From Candidatus Micrarchaeota archaeon (GTDB lineage Archaea; Micrarchaeota; Micrarchaeia; Norongarragalinales; UBA8480): DNA of 16,152 nucleotides. The position numbers and the translations under genes are program-made. The notes under the pieces were generated by a model, which did not search any database, was not told the DNA's origin, and saw only the letters and a list, made by a program, of their open reading frames with translations. Of the stretch, positions 599 to 14,959 are shown piece after piece. Each line of letters begins with the position of its first letter. Positions within the stretch are counted from its first letter, which is position 1. The DNA is taken from the NCBI GenBank assembly GCA_043805855.1, contig JAZDHP010000047.1, positions 1-16,152 of the forward strand. Reading direction: 5' to 3'.

Positions 599-818
599 TT
601 CATTTTCCATTTCAGTTTATCAACTCCCTACTTTTGCCCAGTCTTGGCTCGACTTGGTTAATTCGCAAGATCGCTTTTAATGTTTTCCCCACCTAACGGC
701 AGGTCGGCGCAAAGTGCGCCTAAAACAATAAAAGCTCCTTGCTCAGCCAAAAGGCACAGTTCGTTCGAGCCAAAGAACTGGGCTCGAGCGGAGTCGATAA
801 ACTATGGAAAACAATGAA
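599..818 (+). promoter_or_regulatory. Long imperfect inverted repeat (599-652 vs 765-818) able to sequester the endonuclease SD and start codon
   Basis: TTTTCCAT 603-610 pairs with ATGGAAAA 804-811. AGTTTATCAACTCC 614-627 pairs with GGAGTCGATAAACT 790-803 (13/14). GCCCAGTCTTGGCTCGA 636-652 pairs with TCGAGCCAAAGAACTGGGC 765-783 (2 bulged nt). Confidence 0.75.
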
Positions 819-1982: not shown

Positions 1983-1991
1983 TTTTTAAAA
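1983..1991 (+). promoter_or_regulatory. Putative TATA box for a leaderless transcript of the Lon C-terminal ORF
   Basis: TTTTTAAAA ends 25 nt upstream of ATG 2016, typical archaeal leaderless spacing. No SD is evident. Confidence 0.5.
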
Positions 1992-2015
1992 CTTCTAACG
2001 CTACAGTTAGTTCAT

Positions 2016-2135
2016 ATGCCGAAAATAACCCGCGAGAAAATCGTGAAGAAGAGAGTATCGAAGAAAAAAGCTTGGTTCTACAATGCAACCACTGCTACAG
2101 GTAACTATTTCGCTAACAAAGTTCTAGTTCACAAC
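2016..2135 (+). mobile_element. Split intein, C-terminal half (IntC, 40 aa)
   Basis: Block [16 protein letters not shown] and block G VLVHN, followed by the +1 Ser nucleophile (TCA 2136-2138). Confidence 0.9.
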
Positions 2136-3380
2136 TCAGGAGGCCTCGGCACACCCGCTCACTTGCGTATTGAAGCTGGCGCAATTCACCGCGCGCACAA
2201 AGGTGTGTTGTTCATTGACGAAATTGCAACGCTAAAGCCACGCGCACAACAAGAACTGCTCACCGCAATGCAGGAGAAGAAATATTCCATAACCGGCCAG
2301 AGTGAAATGAGCTCCGGAGCACTTACAAAAACACAACCTGCGCCGTGCGACTTTGTATTAATAGCTGCAGGCAATTATATGGACGTTAAGCACATGCACC
2401 CAGCGCTGCGCTCTCGTATACGCGGTTACGGTTATGAAATTTACATGGACGAATCAGTACCAGACACGCTTGAAAACCGCACAAAACTAGCGCAGTTCGT
2501 TAGCCAAGAAATTAAAAAAGATGAAAAAATCCCAGCGTTCTCGCGCGAAGCTGTGCTGGAAATTATAAACGAAGCACGCAAGCGCTCAGGGAGAAAAGGT
2601 AAACTTACGCTTAAACTCCGTGAACTCGGCGGACTCATAAGGGCAGCTGGAGATATTGCCAAGCAGGAAAACGCAACGCTTGTAACGCTCGTTCACTTGG
2701 AAGCAGCTAAGAAACTCGCGCAAACGCTAGAGCAGCAAATGGCAACGCAAATTCTCGAACAGCGTAAAGATTACAAGGTATTTTCAACAACCGGTGCCGA
2801 AGTTGGCAAAGTAAACGGTCTCGCAGTAATGGGCGACAGTGGAATTGTTTTACCAATAGTTGCCGAAATCGCGCCGTCGTCAAGCAAAGAAGAAGGCCGC
2901 ATTATAGCAACTGGTAAACTTGGGAGCATTGCGAAGGAAGCGGTTGAAAACGTCTCTGCAATTATCAAGAAACACACTGGCAAAGACATTTCAACTTACG
3001 ACATCCACGTTCAGTTTCTACAGACGTATGAAGGCGTAGAGGGAGACAGTGCGTCGATTAGCGTCGCAACTGCGGTTATCTCCGCGTTAGAGGAAGCGCC
3101 CATTCAGCAAAACATTGCAATGACCGGCTCCATTTCAGTGCGCGGTGAAGTTTTACCAATTGGCGGCGTAACGCAAAAGGCAGAAGCTGCAATAAGCGCC
3201 GGACTGAAAAAGATTATCATTCCAAGGTCTAACTACGATGATCTCGCGTTGACTAGCGCACAGAAGAAGCAAATTGAAATAATTCCAGTTTCAAACCTCG
3301 TTGAAGTACTACAAAGCGCATTGGCACCGTCCAGTAAGAAAAAGCAACTGTTGGAAAAAATCACGAAGGAACTAAAGTGA
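2016..3380 (+). CDS. lonB: C-terminal split-intein half fused to LonB C-terminal part (AAA+ remainder and protease domain)
   Basis: After VLVHN the sequence resumes Lon[24 protein letters not shown], Walker B VLFIDEI, sensor IAAGN, Arg finger [11 protein letters not shown], catalytic Ser in VEGDSAS and Lys in [10 protein letters not shown]. Confidence 0.95.
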
Positions 3381-3874: not shown

Positions 3875-4225
3875 ATGGGAATTAATGTGGAACACTTAAA
3901 AACAATTGCGCGGGTTGTTCACGAGAACTTTGGCGGCGTTACTGGCGTTGGCGTTGTAAATAAAACTAATAGACTAACAGGAACGCCGAAAACATTACTT
4001 GTTTTACACACGGAAGTACCAGGAGGACCGCAGCACGTAATTAACACGCACATAGGCCAGCTTTTAGAACCCTATGGATTTCAAGTGAAACTATGGCCTG
4101 AAATAACCGCTGAACGAATGAGAATAGTCGTAGCAAAAGGTAGGCACGCAATAACAATAACAAGTCAACCTACGAGCAAAAGTAGAGCTGGCGCAATAAT
4201 GATCCACCAAATAGGCATGAGCTAA
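3875..4225 (+). CDS. Hypothetical protein (possibly C-terminally truncated, frame continues to 4282)
   Basis: 116-aa ORF co-oriented with neighbours. No known motif. Confidence 0.65.
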   Translation: MGINVEHLKTIARVVHENFGGVTGVGVVNKTNRLTGTPKTLLVLHTEVPGGPQHVINTHIGQLLEPYGFQVKLWPEITAERMRIVVAKGRHAITITSQPTSKSRAGAIMIHQIGMS

Positions 4226-4348
4226 GAAGATGCGAAAAAAGCCGCAATTGCAATGATGCAAGCAGTTAGAAAACCAACTTAGCTCATTCAGTTCGTTACA
4301 GTTAAACAAGTGCCTTTTTTATTCACTAATAACTTATTCACTATAACT

Positions 4349-5716
4349 ATGGAAATAGAACGCATATTTGCTAAAATCGCCAGCGAGGTTTCGCCTTCGC
4401 CGGTAGAACTTGCTGTTGAGAAGAAGTTCGCAGCGAAGGTAATTGCAAATCTGGAGAAATTCTTGCCAAAAAACGCTAAGGTCACTTTTGTTGGAAGCGC
4501 TGCGCGGGATACTGGACTACGCGGCGATCGAGACATTGACCTCTTTGTGGCGTTTCCCCGCGAGATGGACGAAGATAAAATAGTTAAGCTTACTTTCAAC
4601 GCGGCGAAAAAGGCAGTTAAAACAAAATGGGTGACACACTACGCGGAGCACCCTTATTTGCAAACCATCGCTGGAGATTTCCAGGTTGAAGTTATTCCTT
4701 GTTTTCAAGTTGAGCCGCACACTGGGATAAAAAGCGCAGTTGACCGTTCGCCATTGCACATGGAATATTTACAAAAGAAATTAACACAACGTCAGCGTCG
4801 CGATGTGCGCGTGATGAAAAAGTTGTTGAAAGTAAACGGAGTTTACGGCGCTGAAGTTACAATCGGCGGCTTCTCTGGTTTAGTTTGTGAACAGTTGATG
4901 CTGAAATATGGCGACCTTGAAAGTTTATTGCGCGAAGCTACAGAATGGCGCCCTCCGGTTATTGTCGACTATGAAGGTTCGTGGAATAGTGAAACAAAGC
5001 AAGGCAAAACTGCTTTGCTGCAAAAGTTCAAAGACACGGGTTTAATTTTAATTGACGTTATTGACAAGAATAGAAACGCAGCTGCGGCAATTACAAACGA
5101 GAGCCTCGCGAAGTTTATCCTACTTAGCCGTGCGTTTGTCAAGAAACCAAGTTTGGAATTTTTCAAAGAGAAGAAAGTGAAAATTAATGTTTCAAAGATA
5201 AACGCCATGTTGAAGAAACGCGGCACGGTTTTCATAACTATTGAAGTGAAGAAACCAGATTTTGTTGACGATATTATATTCCCGCAGTTTAAGCGCAGCG
5301 AGAAGAACATCGCTCGTGAATTGCAACGCGTTGGGTTCAACGTGATTGGCAGTTGTGACCTTTATGAAAAAGGGCAACTGTTGTTCGAAGTGCAAAACAA
5401 TATGCTACCGGCAGTTAAGCAAATTATTGGCCCACTAGCATGGGATACTGCAAACGTTGCGAAATTCTTAAAGGGCAAAAAGCCACTGCGTGGGCCGTAC
5501 ATTGAAAATGGAAAAATGTGCGTCGACATGAAGCAAAGCAAGCGCGGCGTAATTGAAATGATTAAAGTAATTTTACACCGCAGTGAAACTGGAATAGCTT
5601 CACACTATCAAACTGCTATGAAAAAAGCAAAAGTGCAAATTGTGAAAAAGGTTGACAAGCAAAACGCAACGATATTGCATAACTATCTATTCGCAGAAAT
5701 TGGTTTAAAACTTTAG
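4349..5716 (+). CDS. cca: Archaeal (class I) CCA-adding tRNA nucleotidyltransferase
   Basis: Nucleotidyltransferase motif VGSAARDTGLRGDRDIDLF, plus YAEHPY, SAVDRSPLH and VYGAE...GGFSGLVCE. ATG 4349 is preferred over GTG 4310. Confidence 0.95.
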   Translation: MEIERIFAKIASEVSPSPVELAVEKKFAAKVIANLEKFLPKNAKVTFVGSAARDTGLRGDRDIDLFVAFPREMDEDKIVKLTFNAAKKAVKTKWVTHYAEHPYLQTIAGDFQVEVIPCFQVEPHTGIKSAVDRSPLHMEYLQKKLTQRQRRDVRVMKKLLKVNGVYGAEVTIGGFSGLVCEQLMLKYGDLESLLREATEWRPPVIVDYEGSWNSETKQGKTALLQKFKDTGLILIDVIDKNRNAAAAITNESLAKFILLSRAFVKKPSLEFFKEKKVKINVSKINAMLKKRGTVFITIEVKKPDFVDDIIFPQFKRSEKNIARELQRVGFNVIGSCDLYEKGQLLFEVQNNMLPAVKQIIGPLAWDTANVAKFLKGKKPLRGPYIENGKMCVDMKQSKRGVIEMIKVILHRSETGIASHYQTAMKKAKVQIVKKVDKQNATILHNYLFAEIGLKL

Positions 5717-7791: not shown

Positions 7792-8052
7792 ATGCCAAAT
7801 TTATCTGCACAGAAATTATTGGAATTTATAGCAAGAGAAAAGGAACAAATATCTGCTAGATTAAGCGCAAATCGGCGCGGAGTTGAATTTGGAGATAGCG
7901 GCACCCCGCAAGAAACTGTAATTAAAATAAGCAGAGAAGCTAAGCAAATCGCAGGAGAAAGGGGACTTACGACCGCTTATAACCGGGCACAAACCGGAGC
8001 TCACGAAATTCACTTTATCACACGCAGCGCTGAAATGAGAAGACGCAGATGA
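7792..8052 (+). CDS. Small basic hypothetical protein (paralog of 6077-6334)
   Basis: ATG 2 nt after the proS stop, 86 aa. Pattern similarity to ORF 6077. Confidence 0.7.
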   Translation: MPNLSAQKLLEFIAREKEQISARLSANRRGVEFGDSGTPQETVIKISREAKQIAGERGLTTAYNRAQTGAHEIHFITRSAEMRRRR

Positions 8053-8084
8053 AATTCACTTTGAAAAATGGAGAAGTTGTTAAC
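8049..8084 (+). repeat. Direct repeat copy 1: duplicated 5' end of the GNAT gene (encodes MKFTLKNGEVVN then stop)
   Basis: ATGAAATTCACTTTGAAAAATGGAGAAGTTGTTAAC matches 9505-9540 at 34/36. Confidence 0.9.
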
Positions 8085-9504: not shown

Positions 9505-9540
9505 ATGAAATTCACTTTGAAAAACGGAGAAGTTGTTGAC
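9505..9540 (+). repeat. Direct repeat copy 2 (functional start of GNAT gene)
   Basis: ATGAAATTCACTTTGAAAAACGGAGAAGTTGTTGAC, 34/36 identical to 8049-8084. Confidence 0.9.
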
Positions 9541-11553: not shown

Positions 11554-14174
11554 GTTAGCGTTTCCACTATTGTCGCGGTTCCAATTTCTTTGTCGCGGTT
11601 GAAAACGTGTACTGCGCCACTTGCTCCTTCTTTCAACGTTTCATCGTGCGTTACGACGAAGGTTTGCTTTACTATTGTTGGGAGCGTTTCGTGCATTGCT
11701 CTGGCAAGTAACTGAACGCCGTTTGTATCTAGATTATGCGTAGGTTCGTCAAGAACAAGCCACGAGAGATTTGGAACAAGTACCATTGCGAGCGAAATAC
11801 GTAAACATAGCGCTGCGCATGTCTTTTCGCCTCCGCTGCATTGTTCAATTGGCTTCCACTCGCTTCCAGCTAAAACTTCTAGCAAATAGTCATCTTCAGT
11901 TGCGACAACACGGCACGACGCGTAGTCGCGATAGGGGTAAATGCTCTTCCATATTTCTTGCATTGCACTGTTAACCGCAGTTATCAATTCTGTGCGGAGT
12001 TGCGTTTGGGTTTCTACAACGCTGTTTTGGAAAATAGTTAGCTGTGAAGCGTTGCTTTCGATGTCAGCCGCGTTTTTCTTTACAATTGAAAGCTTGGCGA
12101 ATTGCGTTTCCAAGCGCGAAACTAATTCCGTTTTCTCTTTTACTTCACTCACTACGTAGCGGAGTGAAACTTTATTTGATTCTAACTGCGATTGCAACGT
12201 CGAGTGCTTTTGTCGCGTTTCTCGCAATGTTTTCTCGTCGAACTGCAACTGTGCCTTTCTTTGCGTTAATTCCTCGTGTTTTTGTTTCAACACTTCGGTT
12301 TTTTCAATTAACTCAATTGCTTTCAACGCGGCGCGCGACTCAGCTAGGCGCGTTTCCAAATGTTTTTTACTGTCAAATAATTTCAACACTAGAGACTTCT
12401 TGTCAATTTCTTCCCTCATCGTGGCGTAGTCCGCTTGAAGCTGGGTTAAACGCGTCTCGCTTTTTTCAATTTGGGTTAAGTTTTCTTTCAAAATGTTAAA
12501 CCGCTGTGATTTAGCACGCAGCGCATCAACAGCCGCCTTGCTTGTTGCAACTACTTTGGAAATTCTCTGTAATTCGCTTTGCACTTGCGCCGCGTCTCTT
12601 GAAAGCGCTGTTTCGCGGATAGTTAAATCATAGCACTTTTCCGCTAGCGGTAAGAGTTGCCGCCAAGTCGCGAATACTTTTTCCATATCTGCCAGTTTCT
12701 TTTTAGCTTTGCTTGCAATTGAACGGTTTTCTTCAAGCACAACGCGTTCGCTTCCAAGTGACTTTTTCTTTTCAACAATTAGTGACCCGCATTTATCCTC
12801 GTTTAATTGTTGATCGCAAGTTGGGCAGTTTGCACCTTGCTTTGCAAGCAGCGAAAGCGACGCTTCCAATGTAAACACGGCTTCGCCTTTAGCTGCAATT
12901 GTTTTTTCAGTTTCCATTAGCAACTCGCGTTGCTCGTGCATTGCCTTTTCCAAATCTGCAATTGATTGAAATTGTTTTTCAAACAACTTCATCGCCTGGA
13001 CTTGCTCTTGCAGCGATTTCACCTGCGGCGAGATTTGCTTTAACTCCGCAGCAATTGAAGCTTGGCTTGACTGTAATCCGCTTTCGGTTTTTGCCAATTC
13101 CATATATTCCTGCGAAGCAGTTTCCAAATCCTCACTAACATTTACTAACGCGGCCATCTCTGTTTCAATTGATTGCACCGAAAGCTGTTCTAGGTTTTCC
13201 TTAACTGCATTTAACTCTCCAGAGAGGCGCTCGGCATTAACTGTTAATTCGTTAATCGAATGTTCTAAGTCAACACGTTCTTGAAGTGCACGCGCACACT
13301 GTTCCAAGAGAGAAGTACACTGCTCTCGCGTGAACTCGGAAAGTGCTTCAGGCATAACTGAACCTGCGCTTGAAGTTAGGGATTTAATTTCTGCGGCTAA
13401 TTTTGCAACTTCTAAGCTCAATTCTTCATTTAGTTTGGCAGATTCTTCAATTGACTCTAACTCGCGTTTTGAATTTTCAATATTAGTAACCAACACAAAC
13501 TCTTGAGATTCTAATTCGCTTTTCTTTTGGCTAGCGCTCGCTAAGGCGTTTTTGTAATTTTGTAAATCACCCTGAAGGGAAGTTACATCAACCCCCGCGA
13601 GGAAATTTTCAAGACTGGCTTTTTCACCGCGCAATTTTAGCAACGCTGCGTTTGCATTCGTACGCACGTTTTCAAAAAGAGAAATTCCAAGCAACTCATC
13701 AAACTGCGCCTTGCGACTGCCTTTTGGCAGCGAGAGAAAATAGTCAATTTTGTTCTGTTCGCCGTAAATCACGCGTACAAAAGTATCATAGTCAACTTTT
13801 AACACTCGTGCAACGCTCTCGGTAACGCGCACTGGCTGGGGACCTTCAATCAACGCACTGCCCTTGCGTAAAAAAGCTTCTGTACCTTTTGCAGTAACCG
13901 CTCGCGTGACAATGTATTGCTGTCCGTTTACTTGGAATTGCACTTCAACAAGCGCAGATTCCTTCTTCTCGGGGCGCGACATAATTACGTCGGAAAGGTT
14001 AACTTGCCTGCTTTTCAACGATGGAAACGAACCAAAGAAAGCAAAACATATAGCGTCGAGGCAACTGGTTTTTCCAGAGCCCATTGTTCCAATTAGCAAG
14101 TTAGTTCCTTTGGAAAAGCTCAGCTCGGTGTTAGAGTGGCTCTTCCAGTTCACCATCTTGAGCTTCTCAATCAT
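11550..14174 (-). CDS. rad50: DNA double-strand break repair ATPase Rad50 (SMC-like)
   Basis: Walker A GTMGSGKTS, Q-loop YGEQ, long coiled coil with central zinc hook CPTC, signature CSGGE, Walker B LVLDEPT, H-loop VVTHD. Confidence 0.9.
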   Translation of the reverse strand: MIEKLKMVNWKSHSNTELSFSKGTNLLIGTMGSGKTSCLDAICFAFFGSFPSLKSRQVNLSDVIMSRPEKKESALVEVQFQVNGQQYIVTRAVTAKGTEAFLRKGSALIEGPQPVRVTESVARVLKVDYDTFVRVIYGEQNKIDYFLSLPKGSRKAQFDELLGISLFENVRTNANAALLKLRGEKASLENFLAGVDVTSLQGDLQNYKNALASASQKKSELESQEFVLVTNIENSKRELESIEESAKLNEELSLEVAKLAAEIKSLTSSAGSVMPEALSEFTREQCTSLLEQCARALQERVDLEHSINELTVNAERLSGELNAVKENLEQLSVQSIETEMAALVNVSEDLETASQEYMELAKTESGLQSSQASIAAELKQISPQVKSLQEQVQAMKLFEKQFQSIADLEKAMHEQRELLMETEKTIAAKGEAVFTLEASLSLLAKQGANCPTCDQQLNEDKCGSLIVEKKKSLGSERVVLEENRSIASKAKKKLADMEKVFATWRQLLPLAEKCYDLTIRETALSRDAAQVQSELQRISKVVATSKAAVDALRAKSQRFNILKENLTQIEKSETRLTQLQADYATMREEIDKKSLVLKLFDSKKHLETRLAESRAALKAIELIEKTEVLKQKHEELTQRKAQLQFDEKTLRETRQKHSTLQSQLESNKVSLRYVVSEVKEKTELVSRLETQFAKLSIVKKNAADIESNASQLTIFQNSVVETQTQLRTELITAVNSAMQEIWKSIYPYRDYASCRVVATEDDYLLEVLAGSEWKPIEQCSGGEKTCAALCLRISLAMVLVPNLSWLVLDEPTHNLDTNGVQLLARAMHETLPTIVKQTFVVTHDETLKEGASGAVHVFNRDKEIGTATIVETLT

Positions 14175-14227
14175 TGAAAGAAAATAGAAAGCGAAAAAGG
14201 GTTAAACCTTACTAAAGTAACAACTTC

Positions 14228-14959
14228 ATGCCTTCAATACAGGAAATGCGCCGCGAGTTAAAACCAGTTTATGGCCGCTACACAGACGCAGTAATTTCAA
14301 TGATTGGACTACGACCGCATGAAGCTGTGCTTGCTGCTGCGAAACGCGGAGATTTGTTAGAAGCGCATAGTGTGCAAGTTGCGTTATGCCAACAAAGAGA
14401 CTTTACGAAATGGAAAGGACAACCTGACTTTTTTTCTAAGCTAATGAACTGGCAAGAAAGAGAACAAAAACCAGGTTGGTTCAGCAAACCATTGAAGGCT
14501 CCTGGTCTAAAAAGAAACGGTATCCAAATAAGATTGAAAATAAACAGGAATAACCCTTCAGACATAATTCATACAACTTTAGGCAAAATTGGCGAAGTTG
14601 ACATTAGAACCGGTAAGATCGGACGTGTAAGGGCACTATTAGTACCTCATTTACAACAAAGTACTAAAGAACTGCCTTCAAAAGAAGCGAGAAAAATAGA
14701 AGGATGGAAAAACGCAGTTATGATTGCGTTAGAACAAGAAGCAAAAGAAAGGGATTGTGATTTAATCGCATTTAGCGCTGGAACTGGCCATTCAAGAGAA
14801 AATATTTCACAAAAACCAATTCAAGGGGAAATCTTAGAAACATACGGCAGGCTACCAATGCAGCATGGCTATAAACTAGCTCAAATTGAAACCGAGCCAG
14901 ACCCAATGTTAGACTATTTTCAAAAATTAAAGTGGATCAAACGCGTTTCTATGAAATAA
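14228..14959 (+). CDS. Hypothetical protein, possibly GNAT-like fold at C-terminus
   Basis: 243-aa ORF. GWKNAVMIALEQEAKERDCDLIAF and YGRLPMQHGY loosely echo GNAT motifs (weak). Confidence 0.65.
   Translation: MPSIQEMRRELKPVYGRYTDAVISMIGLRPHEAVLAAAKRGDLLEAHSVQVALCQQRDFTKWKGQPDFFSKLMNWQEREQKPGWFSKPLKAPGLKRNGIQIRLKINRNNPSDIIHTTLGKIGEVDIRTGKIGRVRALLVPHLQQSTKELPSKEARKIEGWKNAVMIALEQEAKERDCDLIAFSAGTGHSRENISQKPIQGEILETYGRLPMQHGYKLAQIETEPDPMLDYFQKLKWIKRVSMK

Follow-up and report, generated by a model that had tools for sequence, protein, structure and literature searches.

The fractured lonB locus

The analyzed stretch of DNA, hereafter called the window, comprises 16,152 nucleotides of a Candidatus Micrarchaeota archaeon, and its gene content is that of archaeal housekeeping, with genes for a CCA-adding enzyme, ProRS and an EF-1beta-like protein. 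The lonB gene is fractured into LonN-IntN, a LAGLIDADG-type gene and IntC-LonC, all located on the + strand. The first open reading frame (1-597) encodes the 3' end of the LonB N-half and an N-intein, which starts at the serine codon 199-201 and ends with the stop at 595-597. It matches NCBIfam lon_rel with an E-value of 7e-12 and intein_Nterm with an E-value of 0.003, the latter under the cut-off, and its intein occupies the same site as the contiguous LonB inteins. The third open reading frame (2016-3380) encodes the C-intein (2016-2135), ending in HN/S (HN/SGG), and the C-half of LonB. This gene is of the leaderless type and is preceded by a TATA box at 1985-1992 (+ strand, matrix score 8.6), 31 nt before ATG 2016. 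A promoter of its own is predicted for IntC-LonC in most split loci, so that lon would not need read-through. The layout, in which the host gene consists of two open reading frames with intein halves and an endonuclease gene lies between them, is that of a fractured gene. Intein splice-junction and endonuclease catalytic residues are present; trans-splicing and nuclease activity are predicted.

The free-standing endonuclease gene (804-1925, + strand) encodes an N-terminal part that appears HTH-like by eye. Residues 1-32 form a variable extension, and the domain common to in-frame intein endonucleases begins near Met 900. Searches of Pfam and PDB with the protein gave no match. A match to NF038162 (E 5e-19) falls in the intein part of that model, an in-frame homologue (L033) matches LAGLIDADG_3 above the cut-off, and the motif acids D132 and E235 are invariant in 21 of 21 relatives. 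The LAGLIDADG-type label is based on these observations and is thus transitive. The closest named relative is a Candidatus Micrarchaeota bin, with 84% identity in the endonuclease and 83% in the Lon C-half. The 14 closest endonucleases share 61-84% identity, and their one GTDB locus (L001) begins inside the gene.

Several further features were observed in the window. Within the first endonuclease codons (824-850) TCACCGGCA occurs twice, and on the - strand a terminator-like stem was called by a scan in this region. Many homologues have a CACCGG-like motif ahead of their second promoter, in some cases in another reading frame. Directly 3' of the endonuclease stop, tandem near-palindromic T/A repeats (1929-1968) represent a candidate terminator or binding site. 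At 14174-14228 divergent genes apparently use one TTTAA/TTAAA core as a bidirectional promoter. A 36-nt direct repeat (8049-8084 and 9505-9540, 94% identity) is a copy of a gene start across an AAA_14/DUF4143 gene, possibly an insertion scar.

Fold and conservation of the hairpin

A preliminary description of this DNA had noted that 599-652, beginning just past the lonN stop, is a degenerate reverse complement of 765-818, and sequence and coordinates of this arm pairing were confirmed. It had also proposed folding of 590-830, for which RNAfold gave -86.7 kcal/mol (z -8.15), a value equaled by none of 200 shuffles. This was the lowest energy among 319 sliding windows of 241 nt, the 310 non-overlapping ones having a mean of -49.0 and a best value of -72.6. 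Pair probabilities of 0.95-1.0 were obtained for the helices 605-610/804-809, 614-621/796-803 and 623-627/790-794. Thus, both GGAG and AUG 804 are paired. In the U-rich left, antisense arm (599-652, + strand), delimited by the fold and by comparison of homologues, 603-610 pairs with the AUG and the first codons and 623-627 forms the anti-SD. The right arm (765-818, + strand), defined by sequence and fold, contains the leader, the SD, AUG 804 and the first codons. The SD (790-798, GGAGnnGAT) matches the full SD in seven of nine positions. With an assumed anti-SD sequence, its duplex amounts to -6.6 kcal/mol, within the range of three other SD-led genes of the window (-4.7 to -8.8).

Between the arms lies an inner conserved core (665-742) that was absent from the preliminary description. 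It is built of a helix (673-686/722-735) on which a three-way junction (684-725) sits as a cap, and in the window the core is more stable on the - strand (-37.4 vs -26.6). The TATA-like TTTTAATG is present at 675-682 as had been described, but it is situated in this inner helix and not in an open loop. The alternative local fold of the right arm was also partly borne out. Without the left arm RNA folding yields a local hairpin (760-792, + strand) in which 760-771 pairs with 781-792, but the AUG region is only partly freed, and the stem still covers the GGA of the SD (G790-A792). The unpaired probabilities along G790-A792 are then 0.0, 0.06 and 0.13 at 37 C. A search of 400-2200 against the families of Rfam 15 gave four chance-level matches only, all far under threshold.

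Homologous loci were collected in one GTDB scan with the endonuclease alignment, which gave 47 loci, all in LonB and at the same site. By reading, 16 of these are contiguous inteins (including L039, with N/frameshift, and L042, which is cut off), five are half-split with the endonuclease fused to IntN, and 26 have a free endonuclease. The half-split LonB inteins, in which IntC is separate, are L029, L032, L034, L037 and L038. Of the 47 loci, 16 have a homologous rod ahead of the endonuclease gene, 15 complete and one cut at its 5' side (L019), the complete ones having z values of -4.1 to -11.4. It occurs in none of the 21 loci with the endonuclease in frame with IntN, nor in the free-endonuclease loci L006, L025, L045 and L046; L001 and L020 lack the upstream DNA. 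In L009 the core is gone and a bare SD/anti-SD mini-hairpin is kept. L002 is decayed and L013 and L021 retain only the left arm, and in all three the loss of the rod is accompanied by loss or damage of the SD-led start. In the endonuclease tree a single clade (98/93), separate from the in-frame genes, unites the hairpin-bearing genes and the group of the window, and L025 represents a separate, hairpin-free full split. This tree omits L024, L042, L044, L046 and L047 because of short matches, uses nine of 20 database proteins, contains one unreliable row (L045) and is midpoint-rooted only, with no outgroup. L046, which stood outside the tree, resembles the L025 split.

A covariance model built without the window matches it in the right place (671-738) but not significantly (7.6 bits, E 3). 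The homology of the window element is therefore based on its position, the tree, the SD register and a junction descriptor. The latter, written after the sequences had been inspected, has one match in the window (0.01 expected) and is found in six of the 47 loci, always at this site. Searches with blastn found nothing in phages and one 30-nt chance match in plasmids. In 414 kb around the lon loci no second hairpin was detected away from lon; the next match (22.6 bits) falls in L003, where the sequence is rich in A/T. Longer close relatives with the parts fused were also sought, and only two distant RtcB inteins came up, which is weak evidence. In two of these loci the Lon C-half contains another intein, which seems to be split as well and has the endonuclease domain on the N side (L041:7340-9026, L045:4560-6232). 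In L015 (3142-4968) two open reading frames between endonuclease and IntC resemble, by eye, a diversity-generating retroelement's accessory gene and its reverse-transcriptase gene.

Covariation, a further check proposed in the preliminary description, was found among 15 homologues, with both partners changed in 19 of 43 pairs. In the model-fitted alignment 93.9% of the cells are paired, and 66 cells covary compared to 21 in shuffles (0 of 500 reach this value) and 4-19 in slid controls; since the alignment was fitted to the model and the sequences are related, these inflated figures do not represent a probability. With a plain MAFFT alignment as input, two helices escaped RNAalifold owing to register errors. 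In the variable helix all eight pairs changed on both sides, and the SD/anti-SD helix is paired in 99.3% across homologues. The outer left arm is lineage-specific and complements the SD, start and first codons of its own lineage, this tracking extending as far as about 50 nt beyond the start codon. In all 17 elements the start codon follows the SD by 12-15 nt. The gated start opens an acidic micro-ORF in 11 of the 17 and the endonuclease itself in five (the window, L003, L004, L012 and L041), and the frame is broken in L024.

Promoters, the acidic micro-ORF and the proposed switch

Leaderless genes of these loci have a TTWA-type core that peaks 26-32 nt before the start (139 regions). The matrices derived from them were trained on TTAA-like cores, so that the scores are partly circular; a sigma-70 scan was set aside as inapplicable to archaea. 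By motif only, the two TATA-like sites in the rod reach the 98.6-99.8th percentile. Site A, TTTTAATG (675-682, + strand), is the best + strand match in 598-900 (99.1st percentile), with a predicted start near 705. Site B (727-734, + strand; 98.6th percentile, predicted start near 758) is the positional equivalent of the homologues' TTTAATG. The equivalents of site B score at or above the 99.3rd percentile in all 16 homologues, and TTTAATG in the 3' strand is the top + strand match in 12 of the 16 (one tie). The site at 675-682 that the preliminary description had pointed out is the top + strand match of 598-900 in the window, where site B has drifted and scores slightly lower, but the better and conserved site of the homologues is the equivalent of 727-734. 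Both sites score higher on the + than on the - strand, and either would yield an RNA that lacks the left arm. In homologue elements such as L016 a GAA-N4-TTC palindrome is present in both arms, with the right copy over the predicted start site; it is a possible repressor operator and is absent from the window.

The accessibility of the gated start differs between the two RNAs in silico. The median energy required for opening is 22.7 kcal/mol on the long RNA and 9.8 kcal/mol on the short RNA from the 3' site, and it is lower on the short RNA in 16 of 16 elements. In the window opening of the start region (788-818) costs 23-27 kcal/mol with the left arm and still about 10 kcal/mol without it, and in the comparison of the two RNAs the long one requires 22.6 kcal/mol. 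The short RNA is not cost-free, with 8.8-10.3 kcal/mol, compared to 3.9-11.3 kcal/mol at 11 other starts of the window. A remnant of a second, leaderless-type promoter precedes Met 900 (869-876, + strand). It is weak here (81.5th percentile), and therefore AUG 804 is probably the main entry in the window. Counting by eye placed a TATA-like hexamer exactly 28 nt before the equivalent Met in 11 of 24 loci, and this second promoter would bypass the hairpin in many homologues. Of the 15 loci scored for an upstream promoter of the long RNA, a clear one was found only in L008, with possible ones in L010 and L015. The strong TATA in L008 lies 29 nt before the arm and 590 nt past the lon stop, and may serve both directions. 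Two short - strand open reading frames, asparaginase-like by eye, are located between lon stop and hairpin in this locus (4095-4633).

In 11 loci, e.g. L005 (2926-3075) and L016 (3665-3811), an acidic open reading frame of 43-56 amino acids (about 45) lies between hairpin and endonuclease; it is absent from the window. It contains invariant E, L, R and W residues, and the SD-like motif that serves the following gene lies within its C-terminal codons. The nuclease start behind it has its own SD-like motif and is moderately occluded (7.1-16.8 kcal/mol). The micro-protein is non-hydrophobic with a median net charge of -8. Its family comprises 169 database matches at 90% clustering and 80 at 50%, five of the 80 being long and repeat-like. 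Comparison with Pfam, PHROGs, PADLOC, Atlas and phage collections gave no meaningful match. According to locus tags, the genome bin of L008 harbors four copies with 74-93% identity to each other, and two copies lie on one 985-kb contig. A genome scan found only one copy of the Lon endonuclease in the L008 bin. Of 21 over-long gene calls, picked by length, 16 read by eye as a translation of the 3' arm of the hairpin, which indicates that arm and micro-ORF travel together. Between L005 and L016 the hairpin is 95% and the micro-ORF 92% identical, compared to 68-69% for IntN and endonuclease. Throughout, the parts show only weak co-inheritance (Spearman 0.0-0.36), and for this reason the L005/L016 contrast alone was used.

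The reading preferred here, which is held with moderate confidence, is a cis-acting fold-back that gates one SD-led start and silences it on long transcripts. A transcript starting upstream of 599, by lonN read-through or from an upstream promoter, would fold into a rod of about 200 nt. As this rod pairs SD, AUG and first codons, ribosomes would be unable to load. If transcription began at a TATA-like site within the rod, the RNA would lack the left arm and could be translated. In most relatives the stop of the gated 45-aa acidic open reading frame overlaps or abuts the nuclease start, which would allow translational coupling. For genes that overlap, 13 of 14 tests in Haloferax and E. coli showed strict coupling (PMC6728339), and such coupling would extend the block to the nuclease. 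In the window the micro-ORF is gone and the nuclease would be gated directly. The fold, its conservation, the covariation and the difference in accessibility in silico were observed, whereas transcripts, promoters, repression, coupling, nuclease activity and toxicity are inferred. The claim that SD and AUG are sequestered on a long RNA and released on a short one is supported by the covariation, the start-tracking arms, the co-loss of hairpin and SD-led start and the drop in opening energy in 16 of 16 elements, but, as the TATA of L008 indicates, lon read-through is perhaps not the sole source of the long RNA.

Alternative readings and known systems

Two rival explanations were kept alive by the scarcity of wobble pairs, the absence of a strand bias, better folds on the - strand, the multi-copy micro-ORF and the module shared by L005 and L016. 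These points together also suggest that the hairpin and this endonuclease gene did not originate together. Of 637 pairing cells 592 are Watson-Crick, six G.U and five A.C, with no strand bias. Internal G.U pairs make up 19 of 674 on the + strand (2.8%) and 16 of 682 on the - strand (2.3%), compared to 30 of 326 (9.2%) in coding controls. Such near-pure Watson-Crick pairing, together with conserved extrahelical bases and a variable top, would fit an element that acts at the level of DNA, as the ssDNA or cruciform form of a small mobile cassette composed of hairpin and micro-ORF. Its complementarity would be maintained via template switching or a recombinase, its insertion between IntN and endonuclease would have divided the intein, and the block of translation would be a by-product or a later use. 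Template switching is described to homogenize the arms of inverted repeats (PMC8604942). The size of the micro-ORF family, its several copies per genome and the closer relationship of the L005/L016 module are in line with this explanation, but the L008 bin may be chimeric. The preliminary description had named a multi-copy element unrelated to this gene as the case against its claim. By locus tag the micro-ORF occurs in several copies per genome; the hairpin has no second copy beyond lon in the 414 kb and none in phage and plasmid collections. Inverted repeats enclosing a passenger, as in a MITE, were not found; the open reading frame begins within the right arm and continues beyond the repeat. 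The arm is moreover aimed at SD and start, and a DNA-level element is therefore considered unlikely. Equally tentative is an extended version, in which rod and 45-aa open reading frame form a multi-copy mobile DPANN cassette with terminator, promoter, gated SD and coupling SD. This would have landed between IntN and the endonuclease domain, split the intein and freed the endonuclease, would still move or swap and be read on both strands or as ssDNA, and its micro-protein would be an endonuclease inhibitor or the first archaeal type-I-like toxin. If hairpin and micro-ORF move alone, they would represent a new kind of small mobile regulatory cassette.

Less probable still is a function through a structured RNA transcribed antisense from the - strand, in the manner of a type I toxin-antitoxin system or of art200, which would pair with the leader of the micro-ORF/nuclease mRNA. 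The - strand folds better in 12 of 17 elements, and the unpaired bases, pyrimidine-rich on the + strand, give purine-rich loops when read on the - strand (A 316, G 185, U 180, C 52). In the window the top hairpin is intact only on the - strand, where its two A.C mismatches become G.U. Internal G.U pairs in the window element number zero on the + and three on the - strand. The multi-copy small open reading frame and the precedent of IS200, which joins a 5' stem with a cis-antisense RNA (PMC4513863), point in the same direction. However, the G.U counts over all loci give no preference for the - strand, the - orientations at both TATA-like sites score lower (84-99.5th percentile), the micro-protein is acidic and non-hydrophobic, and an imperfect second copy of the target in cis would be superfluous.

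The left arm may double as the lonN terminator. All 16 homologues harbor a U6 tract in this arm, which could stop transcription before the rod forms, and the U-rich arm probably ends most lonN transcripts. Archaeal termination is described to involve U-tracts with aCPSF1 (PMC8716108). That the element is mainly a terminator or insulator of lonN, with incidental pairing of the start region, is in addition consistent with retention of the left arm after loss of the right arm in L013 and L021 and with the promoter of IntC-LonC. It explains neither the covariation of the variable helix (8/8) nor the invariant anti-SD, and the arm in the window lacks a run of five or more U, which makes this reading very improbable.

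In a BHB, 4 bp separate two 3-nt bulges, which lie on opposite strands and are flanked by helices. The preliminary description had seen such a geometry in the outer stem, and the 3-nt bulges exist, with 611-613 present in the favored fold, but there they are spaced 6-8 bp and not 4. The alternative CCAU/AUGG register, which would be canonical, has one outer pair followed by a U.C mismatch, lies at +5.4 kcal/mol and has a probability of 1.7e-4. The Micrarchaeum enzyme accepts relaxed BHB/BHL substrates (PMC12397907), but a BHB with a probability above 1e-7 on the + strand occurs in none of the 16 homologues. From the coordinates, cutting could not activate the gene because both cuts would remove SD and AUG with the 'intron'. 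Cleavage by the tRNA splicing endonuclease as the step that turns the nuclease on was hence rejected as extremely improbable for its wrong bulge spacing, unpopulated register and lack of conservation.

Single-stranded DNA hairpins of the attC type have Watson-Crick-only stems, fixed extrahelical bases and a variable tip, and the present element shares all three. It is longer, however, overlaps promoter and start codon, and no integrase was seen in the window. Computational methods have difficulty in distinguishing RNA motifs from those of ssDNA (PMC5737381). Type I toxin-antitoxin systems have, according to PMC12390103, been described only from some bacterial phyla. A small hydrophobic toxin was not found here; the open reading frame is absent in the window and acidic in relatives, and PADLOC reported nothing. 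As to an antisense RNA over the leader, the - strand folds well but has lower promoter scores. The tnpA leader of IS200 combines an SD-sequestering stem, a terminator against impinging transcription and the antisense RNA art200 (PMC4513863). The layered silencing of the start site of a selfish gene is similar, whereas the IS200 stem is described as lying wholly within the native mRNA, and no transposase or IS ends were identified here.

Among fractured-gene loci a hairpin was predicted in the endonuclease 5' UTR in 15 of 16 and a late promoter in ten (Dassa et al. 2009, PMC2677866). The order of IntN, endonuclease and IntC and the hairpin upstream of the endonuclease start are shared with the locus described here. 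Those loci were judged to be phage or viral, encode GIY-YIG or Vsr-like enzymes and were explained by invasion (PMC2677866). In contrast, the host gene is here the cellular LonB, half-split forms exist, and the enzyme shares 29-34% identity with the endonuclease that contiguous inteins of this site carry in frame. The loci form a series of contiguous intein, split after the endonuclease, and free endonuclease with hairpin, in the gene of a cellular housekeeping protease, and therefore the question of how inteins are split is directly testable. They also supply natural split inteins. A literature search, which covered few subscription papers and none of the motifs in the supplement of PMC5737381, gave no description of split LonB inteins in DPANN archaea or of this element.

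The principle of hiding an SD is known from phages, and the archaeal element matches no Rfam family. In T4 I-TevI, I-TevII, I-TevIII, segB and Aeh1 mobE an SD-sequestering hairpin is combined with an internal late promoter, and the short RNA lacks the 5' arm (PMC2988022), which bears out the phage precedent cited in the preliminary description. According to the same source, phages from which the I-TevI hairpin had been deleted did not lose viability through the nuclease, but intron splicing was impaired. Nuclease toxicity is thus not a given as rationale for silencing. The gated fold-back preferred here resembles the T4 type in that the SD of the endonuclease, or of a coupled leader open reading frame, is paired on the long transcript in silico. 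It differs in being located on an archaeal chromosome with TATA-type sites, in forming a rod of about 200 nt with conserved core and junction, in an arm that extends far into the coding region and usually in a micro-ORF in between. A phage late promoter or context was not found for this element, whose neighborhood is housekeeping and which has no phage match by blastn. The rod represents a conserved, covarying and probably cis-regulatory structure in DPANN archaea, and this comparison suggests that archaea reached the solution of T4-like phages for keeping a homing endonuclease off on host transcripts.
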